A DNA stretch of 64,000 bases. Origin: Candidatus Aenigmatarchaeota archaeon. Its GTDB lineage: Archaea > Aenigmatarchaeota > Aenigmatarchaeia > QMZP01 > QMZT01. Below the pieces are notes generated by a model, which was not told the DNA's origin, did no database searches, and was given only the letters and a program-made list of their open reading frames with translations. The translations under genes were made by a program, and so were the position numbers. The DNA lies in assembly GCA_043808015.1 (NCBI GenBank), contig JAZDFI010000007.1, positions 930 through 64,929 on the forward strand. Reading direction: 5' to 3'. Position 1 is the first letter of the stretch. Every line of letters begins with the position of its first letter. Positions 3 through 55,619 of the stretch are shown in pieces.

Positions 3-611
3 GCTTTTTACCCGCTTGGTGGCGGCCAAAACAGCGATACTGGGACGCTGAACGGCATACGAGTGACCAGCGTCCAGAAGGATGCGGGCGTGGTCAAGCA
101 CTTCACCGAAGCGCCGGTCCATGAGACGCTCGTAAAAGGCGCGATAGACTGGGACAAGCGCCACACGTTCATGCGCATGCACACGGCCCAGCACCTGCTT
201 TCCGCGATAGTGCTCGACCTTTGGGGTTCGTCGACAGCAGGGAACCAGATAGAGCTCGAATATTCAAGAATCGACTTCACTCCATTAACGCCTCCGACGG
301 ACTTCATAGACGTCCTGACCACGCGCTTCAACCAGGCCGTCGATAGCGCGCTGCCGGTAAAGATATATTTCACCGGACGCGAGGAAGTGCTCAAGTCCGT
401 CGATGAGCGGCGAAGGCGGCTGTTCGCGCGACTTCCGGAAGCGATAAAGGAAATACGCATCGTCGATATCGACGGCGTCGACAAGGTCCCCTGCGGCGGC
501 ACGCATGTCGCGAACACTGGAGAAATCGGCCACATGAAGATAACGAAGGTCGACAACAAGGGCAAGGATACGATACGCGTCAGGTTCGAACTGGAAAAAC
601 CAAAAGTCTAG
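3..611 (+). CDS. alaX: AlaX-like alanyl-tRNA editing protein (5' partial; frame open to window start)
   Basis: Frame from nt 3 has no stop. Carries GGGQ.SDTG, HTAQHLL (HxxxH) and CGGTHV (CxxxH) motifs of the AlaRS editing/AlaX family. Confidence 0.75.
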   Translation, partial: AFYPLGGGQNSDTGTLNGIRVTSVQKDAGVVKHFTEAPVHETLVKGAIDWDKRHTFMRMHTAQHLLSAIVLDLWGSSTAGNQIELEYSRIDFTPLTPPTDFIDVLTTRFNQAVDSALPVKIYFTGREEVLKSVDERRRRLFARLPEAIKEIRIVDIDGVDKVPCGGTHVANTGEIGHMKITKVDNKGKDTIRVRFELEKPKV

Positions 612-2414: not shown

Positions 2415-3191
2415 TCAGATTTTTATTCTGCCTGACTGGAAGTTCTTTATTATCAGCCTGCACATGCGTTCTATGTCGGGAATGCCTCCGCGCAGGAGCA
2501 TGTGCTTCTTGAGAGCGATTTCCTCGATTGTCTTCTGCTTGTCGTCGCTCACGTCCACGCCGAAATAGGCTTCTATCTTCCCGGGATGCTTGCGCATGAG
2601 CTCCGCGACCATGAGGTCCGGGTCGTGCACCTTAGTCGAATCTATCACACTCATCGAGACGTGCTTGACAGCGTCTTTTTCCATGTAGGGTATGACTCCC
2701 GGCGAGTCTATGAAATAAAGGCGGTTATCGCTGCGTATGACCTGGGTGAACTTCGTATATCCGCTGAGGCAGCTGGTCCTGGCGGAATGCTGGCCCTTCA
2801 TGTAGTTGATGAGCGACGACTTGCCCACGTTGGGATAGCCGAGCACGCCGATGTTTATCCTGGCCTTCTTGCCATAGCGCCGCTCGGCCTCGATGATTAT
2901 GCGCTCCTTGAGCTTCGCCCTGCCTGTGTGGTCTTTCGCGGAGATGAAGACACACGGGCTCATTTTGCCCTTGTTCGACTCTGCCTTCCGCTTTTCCACC
3001 ATGTCCGACTTCGTGACGACGTAAATGAGCGGCTTCCTCGCGAGCCTGACCTTGTCCTCTATCTCGATGTTTCTCGATTCGTCCACGAAACGCGCGTCAA
3101 GCAGGAGCAGCAGGACGTCTGCCAGGCGTATTACCTTCTTCACCGAATCCCAGAAGCTCCTCTTCTTGTCTTTCCTGAACATGGTATTCAT
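2415..3191 (-). CDS. Circularly permuted GTPase (YlqF/RbgA/Nug1-like ribosome biogenesis GTPase)
   Basis: Motif order G4 (VVTKSD) - G1 (GYPNVGKSSLIN) - G3 (DSPG) shows circular permutation. Start placed at internal ATG (MNTMFRK), since the N-terminal 20 aa of the track ORF look non-native. Confidence 0.7.
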   Translation of the reverse strand: MNTMFRKDKKRSFWDSVKKVIRLADVLLLLLDARFVDESRNIEIEDKVRLARKPLIYVVTKSDMVEKRKAESNKGKMSPCVFISAKDHTGRAKLKERIIIEAERRYGKKARINIGVLGYPNVGKSSLINYMKGQHSARTSCLSGYTKFTQVIRSDNRLYFIDSPGVIPYMEKDAVKHVSMSVIDSTKVHDPDLMVAELMRKHPGKIEAYFGVDVSDDKQKTIEEIALKKHMLLRGGIPDIERMCRLIIKNFQSGRIKI

Positions 3192-3257
3192 TTGAAGCGC
3201 GAACATTAAAAGCCTGCGCCGCCGCAGGATATAAGAGGGCTGGACGAACATTATTAT

Positions 3258-4265
3258 ATGATAATAGCCATCACGGGCACGCCGGGGACCGGAAAGACTG
3301 AAGTGGCGAAGTCGCTCTCGAAACGCCTGGGCTGGAACTGGTTCTCGCTGAATTACATAGCCGCGGCTAAAGGTCTGTACGAGGGTTACGACAGCGAACG
3401 CATGTCAAAGATAGTCGATATCGCACGGCTGCGCGAGGAAGTCAATCTTCTGGCAACCGAGCACGAGAATTTCATAATCGAGTCCCATTACGCGCACGAC
3501 ATGCCGTGCGACATGGTGATTGTTTTGAGGACCGACACCACCGTCCTTAGAAAGCGCATGCTGAAAAAGGGCTTCCACACCGAGAAAGTCGCGGAGAACA
3601 TCGAGGCGGAAATGATGCAGATCATTATTGACGAGGCCGTGGCGAATCACAAGAACGTCCACGAGATTGACACGACTAGAAAAAAACCGGGAGTCGTCGC
3701 CAAGGAAATCGAGGAGATAATAAACGACCAGAGCTACGTGGAAAAGGATCTGGCCGTGCCCGAGCGGCTGCTCATGGAATTCAGGATGCCCTTCGGCAAG
3801 CTCTATAAAGGAGACAAGACCGGGGCGACCAGAACGGCCGTTAAAGAACTCAGGGGATTCAGGGGCCTGCTCGTGACGGTCGGAGATTCGGCCAGCTACT
3901 CGCTCATAAAAAGCGGCCTGCGCCCTCACATGATAATCGTCGACGGCAAGGAGAAGCGCGGCAAGTTCAAGGATAAAATCCCTTTCAAGGGAACCGAGAT
4001 AAAGGTCAGGAATCCCAAGGCGCACATAACGGCCCGGCTATGGAAAGCTGTCGAGAAGTCGATAAAAACGCTCAGGAAGAAAAAAGTCAGGATTACCGTG
4101 AGCGGAGAGGAAGACCTAGCCGTCCTGCCATGCGCCATCCATCTCCCACTCGGCAGCAAAATCGTCTACGGGCAGTTCGACGAGGGGCTCGTCGTCGTCA
4201 CGCTGGACGAGGCGAAGAAACAGAGAGCCAAGGCGCTGCTCGAGAACATACTGTTCTCGCAATAA
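3258..4265 (+). CDS. Fusion protein: Fap7/AK6-type adenylate kinase domain + DUF359-like domain (candidate GTP-dependent dephospho-CoA kinase)
   Basis: N-terminal ITGTPGTGKTEVAK P-loop and VIVLRTDTTVLRKRMLKKGF resemble AK6/Fap7. C-terminal 160 aa carry TVGD...IVDGKEKRG...SGEEDLAVLP...YGQFDEGLVVV, recalled DUF359 signatures. Single uninterrupted ORF. Confidence 0.55.
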   Translation: MIIAITGTPGTGKTEVAKSLSKRLGWNWFSLNYIAAAKGLYEGYDSERMSKIVDIARLREEVNLLATEHENFIIESHYAHDMPCDMVIVLRTDTTVLRKRMLKKGFHTEKVAENIEAEMMQIIIDEAVANHKNVHEIDTTRKKPGVVAKEIEEIINDQSYVEKDLAVPERLLMEFRMPFGKLYKGDKTGATRTAVKELRGFRGLLVTVGDSASYSLIKSGLRPHMIIVDGKEKRGKFKDKIPFKGTEIKVRNPKAHITARLWKAVEKSIKTLRKKKVRITVSGEEDLAVLPCAIHLPLGSKIVYGQFDEGLVVVTLDEAKKQRAKALLENILFSQ

Positions 4266-5821: not shown

Positions 5822-6787
5822 ATGCGAAACATAAACATGCTTGTGAAAAACCTCGTGGCTTACGAGGCGTTCGACGGGAAATACGTCGTGAAATTTAAGA
5901 AGCCCGTCCAGAAATACGCCAAAGGTTACATGTTCCACATCCGTGTCGGCGACGCTTCTGGCGAAGTCGCTGTCAGCTACTGGGGCTCCGACAGCAAGGA
6001 CGAAGTCGAACGCATATACAACGCCATAAAGAAGGACGGAGTAGTTTACGTCTCAGGCGAAACTACCATGTATAACGGCAAGATCGCTGTCAACGTCAAC
6101 CCGCCGGTCGGCAAAATAACCGCGCTAAAGGAAAACGAATACGACAAGGCGGCTTTCGTCCCCGAAAGCGAAAAGGACACGAAGGAAATGTACGCGGAAC
6201 TGACGCGATTGTCGGATTCGATAGGCAACCGCCACCTGAAGGAAGTGGTCGAGGCGTTCATAAGGAACAAAGCGTTCTCCGAAAAATTCGTCAAGCATCC
6301 GGCCGCGATGTACAAACACCATGGCTGGCTGGGCGGACTGCTCGAGCACACGCTGAACGTCGCGAAGATATGCGACTTCCTGAGCAAAATACATCCGCAG
6401 CTCGACAGGGATCTAATGCTCACCGGGGCGATACTCCACGACATAGGCAAGATGCGCGAACTCGAAGTGACGACTCATATAAAGCCGTCCAACGAGGGCA
6501 TGCTTCTAGGGCATCTGGCCATGACATTCGAAGACGTCTCGAAGAAGATGGACCAGCTCAATACTCCTGAAGAGCTCAAGATGAAAGTGAAGCACATGCT
6601 GCTCAGCCACCACGGCAAGCTGGAGTACGGCTCGCCCAAGCAGCCGGCAATCCCTGAAGCGCTCGCGGTATTCATGGCGGACGACATCGACTCGAAGATA
6701 ACAGAGATGATTACTTACATAAGCAAGGCCGAGACGGACGACGATTACATCTTCCTGGGAAACTTCGGCAGCGTTTACCTGAAATAA
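5822..6787 (+). CDS. OB-fold + HD-domain phosphohydrolase (YhaM/Cas3-HD-like, COG3481-type)
   Basis: N-terminal OB-like region. HD motif HDIGK and LLSHHGKLEYGSP. The first 110 aa of the track ORF overlap the divergent MazG gene, so start is set at ATG 5822. Confidence 0.65.
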   Translation: MRNINMLVKNLVAYEAFDGKYVVKFKKPVQKYAKGYMFHIRVGDASGEVAVSYWGSDSKDEVERIYNAIKKDGVVYVSGETTMYNGKIAVNVNPPVGKITALKENEYDKAAFVPESEKDTKEMYAELTRLSDSIGNRHLKEVVEAFIRNKAFSEKFVKHPAAMYKHHGWLGGLLEHTLNVAKICDFLSKIHPQLDRDLMLTGAILHDIGKMRELEVTTHIKPSNEGMLLGHLAMTFEDVSKKMDQLNTPEELKMKVKHMLLSHHGKLEYGSPKQPAIPEALAVFMADDIDSKITEMITYISKAETDDDYIFLGNFGSVYLK

Positions 6788-25398: not shown

Positions 25399-27822
25399 AT
25401 GGCAGAGAAAGACATATCGTTGAGAGTGGGAGAGCTGACTGACAGGAGCGAATCCGGCATGAGTATGGTAAGGCTGGAATCCAAGATGATGACCGAGCTC
25501 GGCATACGCGAGGGCGACGTCATCGAGCTCCAGGGCAAGAAGAAGACCGGAGCTATCGCCGTGCGCGCGTATCCGGCAGACATCGGACTGGGACTCGTGC
25601 GCATGGACGGCATAACCAGAACGAACATCGGCGTCGGCGTGGGAGAAACGGTCAAAATCGCGAAAGCGGACGTCAAAGAGGCGAAGAAAGTCGTCATCGC
25701 GCCAGCGCAGAAAGACGAAGTGCTGGAAATATCACAGGGCGTCGCCGACCTGCTCAGGCAGAACCTTATGGGCAGGCCGCTGATGAAAGGCGACGTGATA
25801 TCGCCGTCTCCCGCATCGAGAGGCAGGCCGAGGCAGCAGCAATCATTCGGCAACGACGACATGGATCCTTTTTTCGACATTTTCAGGAGCATGGGCATAA
25901 ACATCCAGGGAGGCGACTTCACGCCTTTCATCCCCATGCAGAGCGAGACGCGTTTGGCGATAGTTGCGACGCAGCCGGAGGGCAGCATAGTCAAGATAGC
26001 TCCGACGACGCAGATAGAGCTGCGCAAGGAAGCGGTTGATATCGACGCAGCTGGCAGGGTACCTACGATCACGTACGAGGACATAGGCGGCCTGCACGAC
26101 ATGCTGGTCAAGATAAGGGAAATGGTCGAGCTGCCGCTGCGCCATCCGGAGCTTTTCGTACGCCTGGGCATCGACCCGCCGAAAGGCGTTTTGCTCTACG
26201 GCCCGCCGGGAACCGGTAAAACATTGCTGGCGAAAGCCGTCGCTAACGAAAGCGGCGCGAACTTCTACTCCATCGCCGGTCCGGAAATAATGAGCAAGTG
26301 GTACGGCCAGACGGAAGAGAACCTGCGCAAGCTTTTCGAGGAAGCGCAGAAAAACGCGCCGTCGATAGTTTTCATAGACGAGATTGACGCCATAGCTCCT
26401 AAGAGGGAAGATGTGACAGGCGAGGTGGAGAAGCGTACGGTATCGCAACTGCTTGCGCTCATGGACGGCCTGAAGGCGCGCGGAAAAGTCATAGTCATCG
26501 CCGCGACCAACATGCCCAATTCGCTCGACCCCGCCCTCAGGAGGCCCGGGCGTTTCGACCGTGAAATCGAGATCGGAGTTCCGGACACAAGAGGACGCAA
26601 GGAAATTCTGCAAATACACACGAGAAACATGCCGCTCGAGCCCGACGTAGACCTGGACTTCCTTGCAGGCAGGACATACGGCTTTGTCGGCGCCGATTTG
26701 GAAGCGCTCGCCAAGGAAGCGGCTATGTCCGCGCTGAAGCGCCTTCTCCCCCAGATAACCTGGAGGAAAGAGGAGGAAATCCCGCAGGACGTGCTCAAGA
26801 AGCTGAAGGTCGGCAAGAAGGATTTCGATAACGGCCTTAAGATGGTCGAGCCGTCCGGCATGCGCGAAGTGATGATAGAGATTCCCAACGTTAAATGGAA
26901 CGACATCGGAGGCCTCGAAGGAGTGAAGCAGTCGCTGAAAGAGATAATCGAGTGGCCGCTCAAAAATCCAGAGGTCTTCACGAACATCGGCGTTTCGCCG
27001 CCGAAGGGAATCCTTCTTTACGGCCCGCCGGGAACCGGTAAAACATTGCTGGCGAAAGCCGTCGCCAGCGAGAGCGGCGCGAACTTCATATCGGTGCGCG
27101 GACCCGAGGTCCTTAGCAAATGGGTCGGCGAGAGCGAGAAGCACATACGCGAGATATTCAAGAGGGCGAAACAGGTCGCGCCGAGCATCATCTTCTTCGA
27201 CGAGATGGACGCGCTCGTGCCGCGAAGGGGGACGGACATGGGCACGCGCGTGGCAGAGAACGTGGTGTCGCAGATCCTCACCCACATGTCCGGCGTGGAA
27301 GAGATGCACAACGTCGTAGTCATCGGTGCGACGAACAGGCCGGACATACTCGACCCCGCGCTGCTGCGGCCAGGCCGCTTCGACAGGCAGGTGCTCGTGC
27401 CGGCTCCGGACGAGAAATCGAGGCTCGAGGTGCTCAAGATACACACCAAAAAAATGAAGATGAAGGACGTCGACCTGAAGAAGTTCGCGAAACTGACGGA
27501 CGGTTATTCAGGCGCTGACCTTGAGGCGCTCGTCAGAGAGGCCGGCATAAACGCCATAAGGGAGATAATGGCGAAGGAGAAGCCAGTCGAAACTGCTGTC
27601 AAAACGGCCAAGACCAAGAAAGCGAAAACCGAGAAGCCCGCCGATAATAAGGAAGAATACTTCGTGACCAAAAAGCATTTCGACGAGGCGCTGAAGAATT
27701 CGCGGCCTTCGATAACGCCCGACATGCTACGCTACTACGAGAAGATAATCGAGAGCTTCAGGAGCAGGGGCATGGAGATGAAGAAAGGCAGCAAAAAAGA
27801 GGACACCGACTATCTCGAGTAG
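25399..27822 (+). CDS. cdc48: Cdc48/VCP-like AAA+ ATPase (two AAA domains)
   Basis: N-domain plus two Walker A sites ([15 protein letters not shown] x2), Walker B DEIDA/DEMDA, SRH regions. Start at ATG 25399 (track 25390 is GTG). Confidence 0.95.
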
Positions 27823-36444: not shown

Positions 36445-36517
36445 ATGGGTCCAGCCGGACTCGAACCAGCGATCTTCTGCACGTCAAGCAGACGTCATAG
36501 CCACTAGACCATGGACC
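36445..36517 (-). tRNA. tRNA-Val(GAC), no intron
   Basis: 73 nt cloverleaf: acceptor GGGUCCA/UGGACCC+A, anticodon arm UCUGC-UUGACGU-GCAGA, T-arm GCUGG-UUCGAGU-CCGGC. Confidence 0.8.
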
Positions 36518-36608
36518 CGTGACCAGCGAAGGACGCAGGCAAGCCCGCGTCGAAATGCCGCCGGTTTACAACATATTATTCCAATGCGTTTTTATAAATT
36601 CGGCGTGA

Positions 36609-36680
36609 TGGGCCGGAAGGGAATTGAACCCTTGATCTTCGCCGTGTGAAGGCGACGTCATGCCACTAGACCACCAGCCC
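36609..36680 (-). tRNA. tRNA-Val(CAC), no intron
   Basis: 72 nt: acceptor GGGCUGG/CCGGCCC+A, anticodon arm UCGCC-UUCACAC-GGCGA, T-arm AAGGG-UUCAAUU-CCCUU. Confidence 0.8.
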
Positions 36681-36694
36681 GCCGGCACTATCAA

Positions 36695-37375
36695 TTATTG
36701 CAATTTATCTTTTAAAAGTAATTCTCCGTTGGCTTCTGTCCTGATCCTGACCAGATCCTTGAGCTGATCCCTGGTGACAATGCTTATCATGGCTCCGCTG
36801 CTGCCAGGCAAGAGAAGTTCCATGTCAGAGAAATCGAGGCCTTCGGCTATTTTCCTGAATTTTTCCACGTATGCATTTTTTTCCTCGGGTTTTTTGTCGG
36901 AGAACCCCCAGAACGGGTCAAAAACGAACCAGCTGCCGTCGTCCATGGAAACTTCATTTAACGCATGAAACCTGAATCTATTCTTTGTGATAAGCCTTTC
37001 AAAGTCCACGTTTTCGGTATATTTTACCGGAATATCAAAGGCCCTGATAAGCGTGGCGGCAAGCAGCGCGTAATCCAGGCAGTTATGGGCAAAGCCTCTC
37101 GGCGTTCCCGGCTCGCCGTATTTGCCGGCAGACTCTATCACCTGCGAGATTGTCCTTTCCCTGCCGAGTCGACCGCCTATGTTGTTTTTGGTCTCGAAAT
37201 TCCGGCCCATAAAACTTCTAACGCCCGCCATAACGGCGCGCTTGTGCGACAGGCCTGAATCGCTTTTGCTCCTGTAAGAAGTGTTATATATGTAGTCTGC
37301 CGCACGCTTCACTACCTCGTCTCTCTGCGAAAATCTTCCCTCGCCGAGATAGTAAGATGCGTTGTATGGACTCAT
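36695..37375 (-). CDS. Transglutaminase-like cysteine protease-fold protein
   Basis: GFAHNCLDYALLAATLIRAFDIPV (Cys), HALNEV (His), FDPFW (Asp) with the spacing of the transglutaminase-like superfamily. Confidence 0.6.
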   Translation of the reverse strand: MSPYNASYYLGEGRFSQRDEVVKRAADYIYNTSYRSKSDSGLSHKRAVMAGVRSFMGRNFETKNNIGGRLGRERTISQVIESAGKYGEPGTPRGFAHNCLDYALLAATLIRAFDIPVKYTENVDFERLITKNRFRFHALNEVSMDDGSWFVFDPFWGFSDKKPEEKNAYVEKFRKIAEGLDFSDMELLLPGSSGAMISIVTRDQLKDLVRIRTEANGELLLKDKLQ

Positions 37376-44509: not shown

Positions 44510-44974
44510 ATGAAAAAACCAAAAATAGCCATCAAGAATCCCCGCGATGGAAAAATCGCCGAACTAGCAAAGAAGACCGGCCACAAGGTGCTGGCAACGT
44601 GGGCCCTTGACTGCGCCGAGCGCGTATTGCCTTATTTTGAGAGCAAGTATCCGGAAGACGAACGTCCGCGGACCGCGATTGAAGCGGGCCGGGCCTGGGT
44701 CAGGACGGGTGTGTTCAGTATGGCGGTAATACGCAAGGCAGCGCTTGATTCGCATGCCGCGGCACGCGAGGCGAAGGATGATGCAGCCCACTCAGCCGCC
44801 CGCGCCGCAGGACAAGCCGTCGCGGCAGCGCACGTCCCTGCTCACGCTCTCGCCGCCGCAGCATATGCGGCCACTGTTATTCGTGACGCCGAACCAGCGG
44901 GTGACGCTGCTGTGGCCAAAGAACGGGAATGGCAGTATCAGCATTTGGTAAAACTTGGAAAAATAAAAAAATAA
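44510..44974 (+). CDS. Ala-rich all-alpha protein resembling bacterial Imm5-like putative immunity proteins
   Basis: LATWALDCAERVLPYFE...DERPRTAIEAGRAWVRT...AAHSAARAAGQAVAAAHVPAHALAAAAYAATV pattern recalled from the actinobacterial Imm-5-like family. About 68% GC, Ala-rich, atypical for this window. Confidence 0.4.
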   Translation: MKKPKIAIKNPRDGKIAELAKKTGHKVLATWALDCAERVLPYFESKYPEDERPRTAIEAGRAWVRTGVFSMAVIRKAALDSHAAAREAKDDAAHSAARAAGQAVAAAHVPAHALAAAAYAATVIRDAEPAGDAAVAKEREWQYQHLVKLGKIKK

Positions 44975-44977
44975 TTA

Positions 44978-46888
44978 TCACGCGAACTTATCGAGGTCGT
45001 CGACGTCTTCGGAAACGACCGTCGTCTTCCTGAACTTGAAGTACCAGAGGAAGACGCCTGCGACCACCACGATCACGGTTATGATGATTATCCACGTGAG
45101 GTCAATCGCTGGAGCGGCTCCGCCAGCTTCGAGCATGTCCATTTTAGCCTGCGCCTTCTGGTAGTATTCGTTCGCCTGGGCGTAGTTGCCCAGCACCAGG
45201 GCGCTTTCAGCCTTGGAAATGTCCGAGCCGATATCGCTTCTCACGGTTTCGGAAATGCTCTTGCCCGCAAGCGCGTAGGAAAGGTCTGTTATGTCCCCGG
45301 AAATGTTGTCGTAGCAGTTGAGAACCACCAGTACGCTAGCAGTCTCGCCTCCTGCCTTTATGTTTATCAGGCCCTCGTATTTTCCGGCGCCGGACGGGGT
45401 GATGGATATCTCGACTGTCTCGTAATCGCCTGCCGCGACGGAAAGATCGGAAACAGGGACGTCAATGTAGCCGCTCATATCGAGCGTCTCGAGGTACTGG
45501 TCGCCGCCTCCGGTGTCCTCCACGTCGTAGCTGAAGCCCGTGAGGCCGGCAGCGCCGCTGTTGCTGACGCGGATTTCGTGATAAACAGGATCGCCGTCTA
45601 TGCAATCCCTGGAGAGAATCATCGTCTCTTTGCTGATAGACAAACTCTTGCTGCCCGTGCATGCCTGCCCGGGTTTCATCACCGTTATTGAAACGGGTAT
45701 CGCGAGTTCGAGGCCGTCACCGGATTTGACCGTCACCTTGCCATCGACATCCGCTTTGATGTTAGGCACGTCTATGCTTATCGTCGTGGCTTCGAGCGGG
45801 CCTAAAGACGATTTACCCAGGTCGACGTAGCTGTCCTTCAGGTCGCCTGACACGGAAACTGATATGTTCGTCGAGTTCTGCCTGAGATTCCTTATTTGTA
45901 TGGTTTGCGAGAAATCTTTAGACTCGTTGACGACGGCATAAATGGAATCCGGTATGAGCTCGAAGAATTCCACTATCGAAAATTTCGCCGTCTTGGCAAG
46001 CGGGCTGAGCGTGCGGATCTCGTATTCGCCCTCGGGCCAGTTGCCCTCGGACACGAAATCGTAAGAGAACGTGTGGTCGGAAGCGACTGAAACAGAAAAA
46101 TCTTTCGCCTTTTTCCCGTCCGGGTAACGTATTTCTCCCGTTACGCTGGCGGCGCTTGACGTGCCTGTCACAACGACCTTCTCCCCGGTCCAGTATTCAG
46201 CCTTGCCGGCTTGCATGGTGAGATAGTCGCCTGAAGGGATCTCGATTCTTTTTAACGTGCTGCCATACGTTCCGGACTCGTTGACCATGAACGTGAAGTA
46301 GTATACACCCGGGTTGAGCGTGATGTTGCCGGCATAGCGGGCCTGGATGACATCGTATTCTAGCGGGCGCTCGGTCTGGTATATGCTCAGGTCCTCCTTG
46401 TATATGCTGTATTTCATCCAGGCTTTCTGGGCCATGTAGAAGAACATGTATACGGTGTTGTCCACCTTGTTCACGCCCGTGAGCGGGACTGAGACTGTCG
46501 ATATGTTAAGCGGGATGGTCTTGTTAGTCGCGCCGCTGGGTGTTATGACGTTGATATACATCTCGGTCGGGCCCGCATTGAAGAAGGGCGACGGTCCGCA
46601 GGTCGCGTTGCCGTCGCTGTTGGAGAAATAACAGAGTCCCTTGCCGTCCGTTGTTGTCGGGAAAGAGCCGAGGCCTATGCTGCCCGTATTATATACTGAC
46701 CACGTGATGCGCATCGGCTTTTCAGTCGTCTTCGGATCGACTTTTATCAGGACCGCCGAGTTGACGGAAAGCACCTTCTCGTCAGGCAGTATGATGACAT
46801 CGGGGCTGTCGGCGCGGGCAAAACCCGGCACCAGCAAAAAAGCAACGGCTAAAAGTAAAACTAACCCAAAAATCCAACCCCTTTTCAT
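44978..46888 (-). CDS. Large cell-surface (S-layer-like) glycoprotein with N-terminal signal peptide and C-terminal TM anchor
   Basis: Signal GLVLLLAVAFLLVPGFARA. Over 20 N-x-S/T sequons. C-terminal TM WIIIITVIVVVAGVFLWYF plus short cytoplasmic tail. Confidence 0.55.
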   Translation of the reverse strand: MKRGWIFGLVLLLAVAFLLVPGFARADSPDVIILPDEKVLSVNSAVLIKVDPKTTEKPMRITWSVYNTGSIGLGSFPTTTDGKGLCYFSNSDGNATCGPSPFFNAGPTEMYINVITPSGATNKTIPLNISTVSVPLTGVNKVDNTVYMFFYMAQKAWMKYSIYKEDLSIYQTERPLEYDVIQARYAGNITLNPGVYYFTFMVNESGTYGSTLKRIEIPSGDYLTMQAGKAEYWTGEKVVVTGTSSAASVTGEIRYPDGKKAKDFSVSVASDHTFSYDFVSEGNWPEGEYEIRTLSPLAKTAKFSIVEFFELIPDSIYAVVNESKDFSQTIQIRNLRQNSTNISVSVSGDLKDSYVDLGKSSLGPLEATTISIDVPNIKADVDGKVTVKSGDGLELAIPVSITVMKPGQACTGSKSLSISKETMILSRDCIDGDPVYHEIRVSNSGAAGLTGFSYDVEDTGGGDQYLETLDMSGYIDVPVSDLSVAAGDYETVEISITPSGAGKYEGLINIKAGGETASVLVVLNCYDNISGDITDLSYALAGKSISETVRSDIGSDISKAESALVLGNYAQANEYYQKAQAKMDMLEAGGAAPAIDLTWIIIITVIVVVAGVFLWYFKFRKTTVVSEDVDDLDKFA

Positions 46889-52629: not shown

Positions 52630-53151
52630 TTACAGTCTTATGGTCTCGATGTAGCAGGAGCTCGGGACTTTCGAAGAAGCGATTTTCAGGGCGTGCCTGC
52701 ACGCAGCCTCGTGTATGGGGGCGACTTTCGCCTCCAGAATGCGCTGGTTCTTCTTGGTGCGCGCGGCCGTGCCTATGGGCCTGCCAAACGCCTTGCGCAT
52801 GCCCGTCTGGAATCTGTCGGCGCCTGCGCCCGTCGCTAGAGGGTTCTCCCTTAGAACATGATGGGGGAATATGAGAATCTTGGCAAAGAATCCGTCAACT
52901 CCGGCCTTCTTTTCAAGCTCCTTCGTCGCCGACAGCCTCATCGCCTCGAGCGCGTTGTTCCTCATCTGGACCGCGTTCTTGATGACGAGATACATCTTTA
53001 TCGTGAATTCCGGCTTGTCGACGCCTGAGTTGAACCTGTGTATCTTCGAAGGGGGGACGCCTTTCACGTAGCTTTTCCTGGGCTTGCTTATCGAGATGCG
53101 CGTGTTCGGCCTCTCAAGCTTTCTGTAGCATTTTGCTGGTCTCAATCCCAT
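52630..53151 (-). CDS. rpl10e: Ribosomal protein L10e (uL16)
   Basis: MGLRPAKCYRKLERPNTRISISKPRKSY... matches L10e/L16 over its full 173 aa. Confidence 0.9.
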   Translation of the reverse strand: MGLRPAKCYRKLERPNTRISISKPRKSYVKGVPPSKIHRFNSGVDKPEFTIKMYLVIKNAVQMRNNALEAMRLSATKELEKKAGVDGFFAKILIFPHHVLRENPLATGAGADRFQTGMRKAFGRPIGTAARTKKNQRILEAKVAPIHEAACRHALKIASSKVPSSCYIETIRL

Positions 53152-53243
53152 GATATCACTCTGTCAATCGGATATTATATTCCTTATATATAATCATAAT
53201 GGTTTAAATACGTGCTATATGGGCTTACCTGCTTTTAAATTTT

Positions 53244-53825
53244 TCACGTACCGATTACCATGTAATCGCCCTCGCACGCTGAAGCGTAGCCGGCCTCTTT
53301 CATGCTATCTTCGAGCGGGATTTTTGCCAGAACGGCCTGCGAATCGCCGTCCAAGTATGCCACAGGACACAGACTTTTACCGGCCTGCGTGAACGCGGCG
53401 TTGCCGGAAAACCCCCAGTGCATGCTTCTGGCATAACCTATAATTTCGCCTTTCTTCACAACCTGACCTTCAATCACAAGCGACTTGTGCAGGTAATAAT
53501 ACATCGTGGTATAGGCGCCGTGGTCGATTTCTATCTTAAAATTGGTTTCCTCGGAAAACTTCATGTACGCAACCTTTCCGTCCGCCGAAGCCATTATTTT
53601 ATTGCTGGTGTTGTTGCCCCACGCGAAGTCGATGCCATTATGCCCACCTTTCACCATTTCAGCCGGATGATTGAGCGTTTCTCCCATAGGCACCAGAAAT
53701 AAAGGTGTGTTATCTGTGTCGAACGGCAGTCTCAACGTGACTGCTGAAGAAACGCAGCCGCTCGTGAAAATGACTGATGCTAAAACCAGAAATAACAGCG
53801 CATTGCCAATGAAATGCGTCCTCAT
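53244..53825 (-). CDS. Secreted M23-family metallopeptidase
   Basis: Signal/lipobox (SGC). HNGIDF (HxxxD) and IEIDHGAYTTMYYH (HxH). Confidence 0.75.
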   Translation of the reverse strand: MRTHFIGNALLFLVLASVIFTSGCVSSAVTLRLPFDTDNTPLFLVPMGETLNHPAEMVKGGHNGIDFAWGNNTSNKIMASADGKVAYMKFSEETNFKIEIDHGAYTTMYYYLHKSLVIEGQVVKKGEIIGYARSMHWGFSGNAAFTQAGKSLCPVAYLDGDSQAVLAKIPLEDSMKEAGYASACEGDYMVIGT

Positions 53826-53871
53826 GATTCTAAGTTATTATTTTATTTAAAAAGACTTTTAACTTGGAGCT

Positions 53872-53927
53872 TACTCCGTCCTGACACCCTTCCAGTATGT
53901 TGTATGCTCATTCTGGATATTTAAAAC
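53872..53927. repeat. Direct repeat copy A (att-like core tactccgtcctgacacccttcca plus conserved 33-nt extension with hairpin and TATA-like box)
   Basis: 56/58 identical to copy B. Core 23 nt matches the 3' end of the nucleotidyltransferase gene at 54778-54800. Confidence 0.75.
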
Positions 53928-53946
53928 TAGCATTTTGATAACAATC

Positions 53947-54264
53947 ATGGAGAAGTATTTGAAGGTTGATGTTGATAAAATAAAGGCTTATTTCGAGGCG
54001 AAATTCGAAGGCCTCAGGGATTATATAAAACAAAATCCGCCCACGAATATGAACGCCAATAAACTTGACGATGAAATTGAACAGACTAAACTCTGGTGCG
54101 GAGGTAACGTGGAAAAATTCAGGCACGGAATTCTCGCGCTGCAGCAATTCGAGCTCGAGCCATCAAAGGAAATGGAAATGATTTTTGGACTGAAAAGGCA
54201 CATCACATACGCCAAAAATAACTACGCGATCATGGAAAGGCTGGTTCACGACGAATGCGGGTAG
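53947..54264 (+). CDS. Cassette ORF A, hypothetical protein (105 aa), lower GC
   Basis: ATG about 25 nt downstream of TATA-like atatttaaaa inside repeat A. Track start 53935 is TTG. Confidence 0.45.
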   Translation: MEKYLKVDVDKIKAYFEAKFEGLRDYIKQNPPTNMNANKLDDEIEQTKLWCGGNVEKFRHGILALQQFELEPSKEMEMIFGLKRHITYAKNNYAIMERLVHDECG

Positions 54265-54270
54265 AAATTG

Positions 54271-54330
54271 TTTCTACTCCGTCCTGACACCCTTCCAGTA
54301 TGTTGTCTGCTCATTCTGGATTTTTAAAAC
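54271..54330. repeat. Direct repeat copy B (tttctactccgtcctgacacccttcca + extension)
   Basis: 27-nt core matches copy C with 1 mismatch (A/G). The further 33 nt match copy A. Confidence 0.75.
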
Positions 54331-54349
54331 TTCTTTTCGGACGTCTAAT

Positions 54350-54790
54350 ATGGAAAGCCAAATGCTCGGGAAAATACCTGAAGAATGTGAGATGCGATGC
54401 TTGGGGCTTTCGAAAGCCAATTACATCAGAGAGACAATAAAGGTCATAGGCATAGACATATCTGATGCCAAAAAAATATACAAGAGTGTCCGAAAAAATT
54501 TCAATGACGAAGAATGGCGTCTTACAGGAGAAAATTTTATTCACATCGGAGATTATTTAAGAGGTTTGAAGGTTTATGCAGAAGCCAGAGAAGTCATAGA
54601 CCGCGGCTTCATTACACCCGAGACGGAGGATAAAGTCGGTGTATTATTTCTTGGTTGTATAAATGGAAGGGAAAAACTGGCACGCTTGAATTATGGAATC
54701 AGGCGCCATATTTTAGGCATACGGGAATTGTACAACGGAATTAAACCCATTCTGGAAAAATACGACCCTGCAATTTCTACTCCGTCCTGA
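54350..54790 (+). CDS. Cassette ORF B, hypothetical protein (146 aa)
   Basis: ATG about 22 nt downstream of tttttaaaac in repeat B. Its last 5 codons and stop lie within repeat copy C. Confidence 0.45.
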   Translation: MESQMLGKIPEECEMRCLGLSKANYIRETIKVIGIDISDAKKIYKSVRKNFNDEEWRLTGENFIHIGDYLRGLKVYAEAREVIDRGFITPETEDKVGVLFLGCINGREKLARLNYGIRRHILGIRELYNGIKPILEKYDPAISTPS

Positions 54791-54800
54791 CGCCCTTCCA
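54774..54800. repeat. Direct repeat copy C (native copy inside the 3' end of the nucleotidyltransferase gene)
   Basis: tttctactccgtcctgacgcccttcca. On the minus strand it encodes ...WKGVRTE* of gene 54777-55619. Confidence 0.75.
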
Positions 54801-55619
54801 CGCCTTGAGCGCGTGCTCGTAGCGCTCCATCGTGCCCGTGTCGAACCACTGGCCGCTGAAAGGGAAACCGAAAAGCCTGCCCATCTTCGCGAGCTTTGGG
54901 AATATCTCCTTCTCGAGCGAGCACTGGCCCTTGGGAATCATCTCGACGACTTCGGGCTCCATTATGTAGAAGCCGGCGTTTATCAGGTTCGTCGGGGCCT
55001 TGCCCTTCTTTGGCTTCTCCACGAACTCGAGTATGCGTTCTCCCTCGAGCTTGGCCACGCCGTACTGGCTGGGGTCATCGACAGTCGTGAGAGCGATGGT
55101 GACCAGCGCGCGGTTCTTCTTGTGCGCCTCGTACATGTCGACTATGTTTATGTCCTTCAGCTCGTCGCCGTTGGAAACTATGAAAGTCTTGGTAAGCCTG
55201 TCTTTCGCGAACCGTAGCGGTCCGCCGGTCCCCAGCGGCGTGTTCTCTTCGACATACGAGATGTTGAGTCCCAGCTTGGACCAGCCGTTCTTCTCCGCTA
55301 TTATCTTCTCCTTCAGGTAGCCTACCGAGATTATGACGTCGTTTATGTTGTATTTCTTGAGCAGGTCGAACATGTGCTCTATGAGCGGCTTGCCCTGGAC
55401 GGGGACCAGCGCCTTAGGCGTCTCGTATGTTATCGGCCTCAGCCGCGTGCCCTCGCCTCCGCAGAGGATGAGCGCCGTCTTCAGTTCCCGCATGCTCAGG
55501 AACTTGGAAAGCACGAGCTCTATCGCATGCGAGCGGTTGCGCACGTCGAGCCCGTCGACCATCGTGTCTATCTTCTCGAGAATGTGCCTGTCTATCGTGA
55601 GCGTTATGCGTTCCTTCAT
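54777..55619 (-). CDS. Ribbon-helix-helix (CopG-like) domain fused to sugar-phosphate nucleotidyltransferase (G1P thymidylyl/uridylyltransferase-like)
   Basis: N-terminal RITLTIDRHILEKIDTMVDGLDVRNRSHAIELVLSKFL (RHH). Then ILCGGEGTRLRPIT (GxGTRxxP) and NTP-transferase core. Confidence 0.75.
   Translation of the reverse strand: MKERITLTIDRHILEKIDTMVDGLDVRNRSHAIELVLSKFLSMRELKTALILCGGEGTRLRPITYETPKALVPVQGKPLIEHMFDLLKKYNINDVIISVGYLKEKIIAEKNGWSKLGLNISYVEENTPLGTGGPLRFAKDRLTKTFIVSNGDELKDINIVDMYEAHKKNRALVTIALTTVDDPSQYGVAKLEGERILEFVEKPKKGKAPTNLINAGFYIMEPEVVEMIPKGQCSLEKEIFPKLAKMGRLFGFPFSGQWFDTGTMERYEHALKAWKGVRTE

Follow-up and report, generated by a model that had tools for sequence, protein, structure and literature searches.

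Two tandem single-gene cassettes and a repeated gene-end junction in a strain-variable gap of an Aenigmatarchaeota genome

How two short genes, each preceded by a copy of the 3' end of a neighboring gene, come to stand in tandem beside that gene is the question raised by a locus in the 64-kb stretch analyzed here, from the 74,833-nt contig JAZDFI010000007.1 of an Aenigmatarchaeota metagenome-assembled genome (MAG). This stretch is referred to as the window; it is the part of the genome that was read, and all coordinates are those of the whole window. The neighboring gene encodes a sugar-phosphate nucleotidyltransferase (NTase), the protein sequence of which places the organism in the Aenigmatarchaeota (DPANN). 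A first-pass annotation interpreted the locus as the footprint of serial site-specific integration into the end of the NTase gene. Comparison with related loci leads to a different answer: the gap between the genes for the NTase and ribosomal protein L10e is a strain-variable cargo site of this lineage, usually empty and sometimes filled with unrelated genes, and the two short genes appear to be foreign occupants of this gap.

The repeated core is a 23-mer, TACTCCGTCCTGACRCCCTTCCA, with three direct copies on the + strand at 53872-53894 (copy A), 54275-54297 (copy B) and 54778-54800 (copy C). These three same-orientation copies had already been listed in the first-pass annotation and are borne out by a search of the window, in which their number stays at three with up to 3 mismatches allowed, and by 100 dinucleotide shuffles, in which the core occurs 0 times. 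Two further details reported there also hold: copies B and C share a longer 27-mer consisting of the prefix TTTC and the core, and copy C lies inside the last codons of the NTase gene as the reverse complement of TGG AAG GGC GTC AGG ACG GAG TAG (WKGVRTE*), the final seven codons and stop. The core is not a generic terminator motif, being unique to its three sites in the window; a 19-nt part of it is found in JGI metagenome contigs, among the matches listed, only at the NTase ends of relatives and in GC-rich chance matches. Copies A and B have more in common than was first described, namely 57 nt (55 of 57 identical) made up of the core and a 34-nt extension, GTATGTTGTMTGCTCATTCTGGATWTTTAAAACT (ext34). 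In both cassettes ext34 is separated by exactly 18 nt from the ATG of a single open reading frame (ORF); a cassette unit is thus composed of the NTase-end core, the 34-nt promoter-like element, 18 nt, the ORF and a short flank. The distance from one repeat to the next is 403 nt and then 503 nt. Both ORFs, of 105 aa (ORF1) and 146 aa (ORF2), are on the + strand; the last 5 codons and stop of ORF2 sit in the TTTC and core of copy C, giving a 14-nt overlap with the NTase gene. The TATA-like box of ext34 is centered ~25 nt upstream of each cassette ATG, a spacing that corresponds to archaeal leaderless-promoter geometry and from which promoter activity is predicted. The block from 53895 to 54800 (906 bp) has a GC content of 0.41 against 0.52 for the window, and GC at third codon positions (GC3) is 0.55 in ORF1 and 0.40 in ORF2, compared to 0.83 in the NTase gene, 0.82 in RpiB, 0.74 in L10e and 0.59 in the M23 peptidase gene found in the same gap. 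That each upstream copy of the core is followed by one short ORF of lower GC is confirmed by the ORFs and their GC3, and the low-GC composition of the cassette block fits foreign DNA.

In all relatives the gene order is RpiB, NTase, gap, L10e, an 88-aa membrane protein, a SpoIIM-like protein and HycI. The gap was compared in eleven lineages; it is empty in six (88-192 nt) and occupied by unrelated cargo in five. The empty gaps are those of L046 (NTase identity 98%; 92 nt), L030 (97%; 103 nt), L016/L031-34 (89%; 152 nt), L035-40 (82%; 192 nt), L041/42 (84% and 83%; ~120 nt) and L043 (81%; 88 nt). The occupied gaps contain a 173-aa ORF on the NTase strand (L001, 96%), a 121-aa convergent ORF (L002, 83%), another convergent ORF (L022), a convergent ORF abutting the stop codon (L003, 74%), and 3.7 kb with TatA, TatC, dockerin and beta-helix genes (L044/45, 80%). 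When the window is compared to L046, nucleotide homology stops at 54781 and restarts at 53208; 1,572 nt, comprising the M23 gene and both cassettes, stand where L046 has ~40 nt. Each locus was also searched downstream of the NTase gene for its own last 27 nt of that gene with up to 6 mismatches, and among the relatives' loci tested, extra copies of the NTase end occur in the window only. Insertion at the NTase 3' end with target duplication, as the first-pass annotation had it, is supported by the repeats, the intact reading frame and the empty sites in relatives. The empty site that it expected exists (L046, L030 and others), but there the NTase gene adjoins L10e rather than the predicted M23 gene, which is absent from the gap in all eleven related lineages.

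The 3.7-kb convergent insertion (L044 4844-8570, also L045) includes a pectate-lyase-like beta-helix protein of 544-582 aa and does not contain the NTase-end repeat; its cargo suggests that the gap collects secreted or surface functions. Other gaps of the same syntenic block vary too: L031 has a 113-aa ORF between Rpe and RpiB (3103-3444), L035 a 207-aa ORF between RpiB and the NTase gene (3338-3961), and L044 an inositol-phosphatase gene with a 114-aa ORF (2474-3785).

The origin of the 57-nt repeat is indicated by an alignment of the gaps, in which ext34 aligns to the sequence directly after the conserved L10e promoter block of sister lineages. The match of TTGTATGCACATCCTGGATTTTTAAAA in L001 to TTGTCTGCTCATTCTGGATTTTTAAAA in the window is 24/27 identical, and that in L016 is 18/21; both lie 76-108 nt from the L10e start in the same orientation, and 0 of 300 shuffles score as well. 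An 18-mer of the element, CATYCTGGATWTTTAAAA, has no further site in the 64-kb window with up to 3 mismatches, and in 313 kb of related loci it is confined to the L10e-proximal position; ext34 is therefore not a generic promoter consensus. Judged by these alignments, the 57-nt repeat fuses two stretches of one locus: the final 23 nt of the NTase gene and the opposite edge of the gap, on the L10e side. As the halves of the repeat come from two opposite gap edges, the junction is of the kind expected if the whole gap is closed head to tail, whether into a circle or by tandem duplication. Microhomology at the join of CCCTTCCAG to TATGT (CCAG[T]ATGT; junction sequence CCCTTCCAGTATGTTGT) amounts to 1 nt at most, suggesting that the join arose illegitimately. 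In L046 and L030, the closest relatives, the ext element is missing, and the window's native copy (53218-53244) is degenerate, its similarity to ext34 not being significant alone; the junction was therefore not formed in place and came with foreign DNA. This origin goes against the independent, attP-bearing element of the first-pass annotation, since the element-side flank of the repeat has its homologue, in sister genomes, at the L10e end of this very gap.

It could be argued that strain alleles of a hypervariable locus were chained by the assembler or in binning, as the source is metagenome-assembled, the locus is strain-variable, and several relatives' contigs end nearby (L022). The join between core and ext is present in no single-cassette allele, which means that k-mers across it can only derive from real reads; the assembly contains the join twice, with 2 differences between the copies, and the flanks are colinear with five independent assemblies. 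Because no exact repeat exceeds 32 nt, a length below the final k that is usual in assembly, and because the junction is absent from single-cassette alleles, the tandem is not assembler-made, and an artefact is considered extremely improbable.

The three copies of the core differ in a manner that bears on where the exchange took place. The Gly codon is GGT in copies A and B; it is GGC, GGA or GGG in copy C and in the NTase ends of all twelve relatives. Correspondingly, position 15 of the core has the donor-type A in copies A and B (GACACCC) and the chromosomal G in copy C (GACGCCC). Read on the NTase strand, copy A is followed by TAA-GCTCCAAGTTAAAAG, resembling the empty-site spacer TGA-GACTCCATTAGCAAAG of L046 and L030; the flank beyond copy A, GAGTAAGCTCCAAGTTAAAAG, aligns with GAATGAGACTCCATTAGCAAAG of these empty sites with moderate similarity. 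Copies B and C are followed by TAG-AAA, a flank that matches L022, and the longer flank of copy B, TAGAAACAATTT, resembles that of L022, TAGAAAATACAACAATTT. A left hybrid (A), a donor-type copy (B) and a right hybrid (C) are as predicted by reciprocal exchange within the first 14 nt of the core.

On balance it is thought somewhat probable that the gap is a minimal-mobile-element-like site in which two foreign gap alleles were stacked via one inherited junction and inserted by recombination in 14-23 nt of identity, most simply via circles. The cassettes would be whole gap alleles from related strains, closed head to tail. The join of core and ext would have been made once, most likely by illegitimate tandem duplication or circularization in an ext-bearing lineage; the junction would then have spread as recombination between the repeated short flanks released and reinserted circles, or swapped cargo. 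In the window, the 906-bp low-GC block would have entered the last 23 nt of the NTase gene by reciprocal recombination with the identical 23-27 nt of the donor, which may have been one 906-bp two-cassette circle or two one-cassette circles inserted serially. Such an exchange would leave copy A with the native downstream flank, TAA and the donor base A, copy B as pure donor, and copy C with the donor TTTC flank and the chromosomal G, and would rebuild the NTase reading frame exactly. Host homologous recombination on short homology is taken as the default agent, and each cassette would be expressed as leaderless mRNA from its 34-nt element. The topology is the same as that of Campbell-type integration of a circle by a single crossover, including duplication of the homology and a head-to-tail join that looks illegitimate; the window differs in that the homology is very short (14-23 nt uninterrupted) and in that one junction is combined with two unrelated cargos.

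The same junction may have been reached with no circle, by an illegitimate tandem duplication followed by triplication through unequal crossing-over; the copies would subsequently have been overwritten by allelic exchange, with homology supplied on one side by a long flank, either the NTase or the L10e gene, and on the other by a short one, core or ext, and the array imported via its flanks. This explanation overlaps in part with stacking via circles, as an origin of the junction. The join is exactly that of a head-to-tail [ext...core] duplication, its microhomology of no more than 1 nt is typical of illegitimate joins, repeat-free replacement of cargo is the usual outcome at this gap, and the shared GAG Glu codon of the three window copies fits import of a whole segment. 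More steps are required, however: duplication, triplication and up to three replacements, of which the middle one has two arms of 23-34 nt. Furthermore, the empty-site-like flank and TAA of copy A, together with the TAG-AAA of copies B and C, are directly predicted by one or two single-crossover insertions. Assembly of the array by duplication and overwriting alone is therefore considered quite unlikely.

The stacking of gap alleles through circles or tandem intermediates has several points against it. The three copies in the window have GAG as the Glu codon, where the three closest relatives have GAA; therefore, the exchange point and the recipient lineage are uncertain, and the segment of M23 gene plus array may have come ready-made from another lineage, through recombination in its flanks. 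The array is a single instance, and spread of the junction is deduced rather than seen in sequence collections, among the matches listed. Two identical breakpoints with unrelated cargo are also what would be expected of a dedicated site-specific system. Several nearby ORFs with no Pfam match may be novel recombinases, and as 64 kb of the genome are covered, a recombinase may act in trans. Finally, to our knowledge DNA uptake and short-homology recombination are uncharacterized in DPANN archaea, and homologous recombination over as few as 14-23 nt is not known to have been demonstrated in them.

The gap itself resembles the minimal mobile elements (MMEs) known from Neisseria (Saunders & Snyder 2002; Snyder et al. 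2007; description in PMC3787668): a variable gap between two conserved genes, either empty or filled with unrelated whole-gene cargo, with no mobility gene and with content that differs among closest relatives. Exchange of MMEs is ascribed to homologous recombination in the conserved flanks. MMEs replace each other, whereas the window stacks two alleles with a duplicated piece of flank and a head-to-tail junction, which goes beyond a simple double crossover. MMEs are also defined by a lack of terminal repeats; the other alleles of the gap have none, while the window allele has them.

The absence of a recombinase nearby, as claimed in the first pass, is upheld: a Pfam scan of the 20 ORFs with no obvious housekeeping identity between 30.8 and 64 kb found no integrase, resolvase or transposase domain, and the remaining neighbors of the array are housekeeping genes. 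An attC site is an imperfect palindrome of ~55-140 nt; as a single strand it forms a hairpin in which R''-L'' pairs with L'-R', and its R' box, GTTRRRY, is located at the cassette boundary. DNA folds of copies A and B on both strands show no attC-like fold; they give an 8-bp hairpin, CCAGTATG/CATTCTGG, of -6 to -7.5 kcal/mol (z about -2), with the 23-nt core unpaired. The boundaries of the repeats contain no GTTRRRY or RYYYAAC box. A dyad at the junction, TTCCAGTATGT-TGTMTGC-TCATTCTGGAT, matches at 8/11 positions; 11-(5..8)-11 dyads in 53100-54850 occur at chance frequency, 9 being found against 8.9 expected. The site-specific recombinase mechanism of the first-pass annotation is thus not supported, in view of the lack of a significant core-type inverted repeat, an integrase or an attC fold. 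Rfam gave no match in 53100-54900. Viral, phage and plasmid collections contain no core, ext34 or block among the matches listed, and the donor-type core (GACACCC) is found in no JGI metagenome contig among the matches listed.

The array was also compared with several known kinds of element. The geometry of an integron cassette array or of a cluster of attC sites lacking an integrase (CALIN) is present, with at least 2 sites less than 4 kb apart in one orientation; the attC sites are missing, and no IntI-type tyrosine recombinase domain is found in the 20 ORFs scanned between 30.8 and 64 kb. The dif sites of elements that exploit Xer recombination (IMEX-like) have 11-nt inverted arms and a 6-nt spacer and are duplicated around the element (PMC2958812); the sequence duplicated in the window is the NTase end, which has no such dyad. 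A transposon or casposon does not fit, as no inverted repeats bound the units and the duplication is of 23-27 nt, rather than a target-site duplication of up to 15 bp, and is shared with the 34-nt arm. Of the features of an integrative element, target-end repeats, a rebuilt gene and an empty site are found; an integrase of its own and replication or structural genes are not.

A rumen-type contig with two copies of the 19-mer (L024, Ga0247611_10006009) was discarded as a chance match, being an unrelated high-GC gene pair ending ...WFKWKGVRTEI. The two adjoining small genes (5903-6403) have an identical 63-nt 3' end and intergenic region (…WFKWKGVRTEI*), and a 34-nt palindromic repeat, TCCCCGGTACTACAGACAGGGTACCTCCCGGGAA, is found between small genes of this contig at 1841, 3940, 4916 and 5455; the region could be a phage or cassette-array region of its own.

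Despite these negative results, the reading close to that of the first pass has evidence in its favor, namely that promoter-bearing mini-circles with a conserved attP (~27-nt core plus 34-nt arm) were inserted serially at the NTase 3' end (attB) by a recombinase encoded elsewhere in the genome or supplied by another element, as an integron- or satellite-like DPANN platform. The junction, 57-61 nt long and 96% identical, is common to two unrelated cargos and has the same breakpoints in each, both exchanges map to one 14-nt part of the core, both cassettes have the same orientation, and the target gene is rebuilt exactly, as with elements integrating at tRNA or gene 3' ends; furthermore, Aenigmatarchaeota MAGs are reported to contain integron attC clusters (PMC9668308). 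The putative attP arm is nevertheless homologous to chromosomal, L10e-proximal gap sequence, which would be needless for a self-contained element. The scanned 30.8-64 kb lack a recombinase domain, no attC-like fold or R'/R'' boxes are found, the junction inverted repeat is at chance frequency, other occupied gap alleles have no repeats, and, among the matches listed, neither core nor ext has a further copy in the viral, phage and plasmid collections, or in metagenomes at any place other than NTase ends. A dedicated site-specific system is therefore held to be unlikely.

Integron cassettes and CALINs, including those of archaea (PMC9668308), resemble the window in having tandem, short, single-ORF units in one orientation with a conserved repeat and no adjoining integrase, and in both the intermediate would naturally be a circle that holds one cassette and a single junction. 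They differ in the repeat, which in the window has no attC fold or R''/L''/L'/R' boxes and is of chromosomal-flank origin, in the predicted promoter carried by each cassette of the window, and in the insertion point, which is the 3' end of a housekeeping gene and not attI.

Neither ORF1 nor ORF2 has a reliable match in searches of Pfam, PHROGs, PADLOC and the PDB, or any recombinase match; the weak leads that emerged, AbiEii (E = 0.013) and a TPR-like motif, are both unreliable, and an RH motif spotted by eye near the C-termini of both is unsupported. ORF2 has a marginal match to a PHROG with no known function (E = 4.6e-4). In a search of 5.8e9 proteins each ORF retrieved itself alone, and an exhaustive HMMER search of 1.84e9 representatives with ORF2 gave only repeat-protein matches, inflated by repeats. 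Viral contigs hold no relative of either ORF, and exact-protein look-ups for the window's ORF1, ORF2, NTase and L10e returned no record. The structure prediction proposed in the first pass was run, but single-sequence AlphaFold models reached a predicted local distance difference test (pLDDT) score of only 56 for ORF1 and 38 for ORF2, too poor for a fold search, and give no usable fold. ORF1 and ORF2 show no significant similarity to each other. In an all-against-all comparison of the gap ORFs of the relatives, ORF1 and the L002 ORF are the only related pair (29% identity, E = 5e-16); the homologue has the same place and orientation and no repeats. Based on this pair, ORF1 would represent at least a conserved family tied to the NTase-L10e gap. 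The first-pass annotation had stated that the same ORFs without flanking repeats in related genomes would speak against integration; this is half the case, for ORF1 in L002, and counts in part against the first-pass interpretation.

The units might instead be what is left, after deletion of almost everything else, of one or two larger integrated elements, such as a provirus or plasmid with an integrase that targeted the NTase 3' end; on this evidence that is considered very unlikely. Remnants of this kind would show att-like direct repeats where a gene ends, orphan genes of low GC and no integrase; archaeal elements are known both to lose the integrase once integrated and to integrate in tandem (PMC8371274), and the marginal PHROG match of ORF2 points the same way. 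Both units would, however, have to decay to one architecture of 34-nt arm, 18 nt, single ORF and next core. The arm is chromosomal gap sequence, the ORF1 family is resident in the L002 gap, and the ORFs have no relatives on viral contigs. Integrative elements at the 3' ends of tRNA and protein genes, including tandem archaeal ones (PMC8371274), share with the window the target-end repeats, the intact gene, the empty sites in relatives, the hybrid outer copies, the donor-type inner copy and the tandem stacking. The units of the window differ in size (403 and 503 bp) and in having one ORF each and no integrase, replication or structural genes; the identity segment is 23-27 nt, and the element-side arm comes from the same chromosomal locus.

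The stacking of gap alleles thus combines known kinds of system, a hot-spot islet, integration at a gene 3' end and a cassette array, and is a variant of these seen in a single instance. The genomes of DPANN archaea are very small and their way of life is host-dependent; their gain and exchange of accessory genes are poorly understood. The hot spot described here carries cargo that differs between near-identical strains, and some of it may plausibly serve host interaction: the M23 peptidase in the window, and the Tat-secreted dockerin and beta-helix proteins in a relative. The locus is a sequence-level record, in one genome, of the stacking of two alleles through a head-to-tail junction composed of both conserved gap edges. 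If the junction is recurrent, it would represent a simple way of mobilizing single genes, possibly with no recombinase; if it is a one-off, it would still be a clean case of an uncultured archaeon acquiring DNA over very short homology, by a single crossover or as a tandem insertion. A bolder proposal is that DPANN archaea have a cassette-stacking platform unlike integrons, in which gap alleles circularize via a ~60-nt junction of gene 3' end and promoter and reinsert at the gene 3' end; this is regarded as doubtful, and its agent would be host recombination alone or an undiscovered recombinase in trans. Were the platform real, promoter-equipped single-gene cassettes would be shuffled between strains and accumulate with no element-encoded machinery.

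The genes on both sides of the cassettes are listed in Table 1 with the features of the array. The NTase protein matches PF00483 (E = 9e-41) and, weakly, RHH_1; it is 95-98% identical to eight cluster mates and has the same C-terminus as its relatives. The M23 protein has an N-terminal hydrophobic segment that is signal- or lipobox-like (…VIFTSGC) and forms a singleton protein cluster. At empty sites, the L10e promoter block is similar in its upstream part to the promoter region of the M23 gene (CTTTTTAAATAAAATAATAAC). About 50 nt upstream of L10e (cggatattatattccttatatataa.cataatggtttaaata.gtgc; window 53160-53215) are nearly invariant in L001, L002, L016, L030 and L046, in contrast to proteins that are only 80-97% identical among these relatives; this conserved block is probably a strong promoter, as judged from its sequence. 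It was also considered as a possible dif site for XerA, but a dyad within it is weak (8/11 with a 5-nt spacer).

Table 1. Features of the NTase-L10e gap and its flanks in the 64-kb window.
Feature	Position	Strand	Remarks
Ribosomal protein L10e	52630..53151	-	Conserved left flank; PF00252 on orthologues; synteny RpiB-NTase-[gap]-L10e in all relatives
L10e promoter block and degenerate native ext copy	53152..53243		Block conserved to ~53215 (ggtttaaatacgtgc); ext copy 53218-53244 (tatgggcttacctgcttttaaattttt)
M23 metallopeptidase	53244..53825	-	PF01551, E = 1.3e-13; own cargo insertion in same hot spot; no flanking repeat
Spacer beyond copy A	53826..53871		Probably original NTase downstream flank; now also holds M23 promoter
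Copy A, core of GACACCC type	53872..53894	+	attL-like hybrid; with flank reads ...ACG GAG TAA on minus strand
ext A, 34-nt promoter-like element	53895..53928	+	TATA-like ATATTTAAAA at 53917-53926, ~25 nt before ORF1 ATG
ORF1, 105 aa	53947..54264	+	Cassette 1 cargo; three helices predicted (AlphaFold2)
Copy B, TTTC + core, GACACCC type	54271..54297	+	Complete donor-type junction between cassettes
ext B, second promoter-like element	54298..54331	+	TATA-like TTTTTAAAA at 54321-54329, 25 nt before ORF2 ATG
ORF2, 146 aa	54350..54790	+	Cassette 2 cargo; predicted all-helical; weak TPR-like motif at residues 53-85
Copy C, TTTC + core, GACGCCC type	54774..54800	+	True NTase 3' end (stop TAG); attR-like hybrid
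RHH + NTP_transferase (sugar-phosphate nucleotidyltransferase, NTase)	54777..55619	-	Target gene; conserved right flank; intact, 280 aa

Further features were observed elsewhere in the window. An Imm5-like immunity protein is encoded at 44510-44974 on the + strand (PF21805, E = 1.5e-42) and is adjoined by a convergent gene (44978-46888, - strand) for a 636-aa protein with a signal peptide and no Pfam match; the two may be a toxin/immunity or contact-dependent pair. Tandem tRNA-Val genes with anticodons GAC and CAC lie at 36446-36518 and 36609-36680 on the - strand, with no repeats or integrase nearby, and are adjoined by a transglutaminase-like ORF (36695-37375). Within an 807-aa ORF (25399-27822), a 47-nt sequence is repeated exactly and directly at 26197-26243 and 27019-27065; the two copies look like the Walker-A regions of a double AAA ATPase of the CDC48 type, which would indicate an unusually recent homogenization of its domains.

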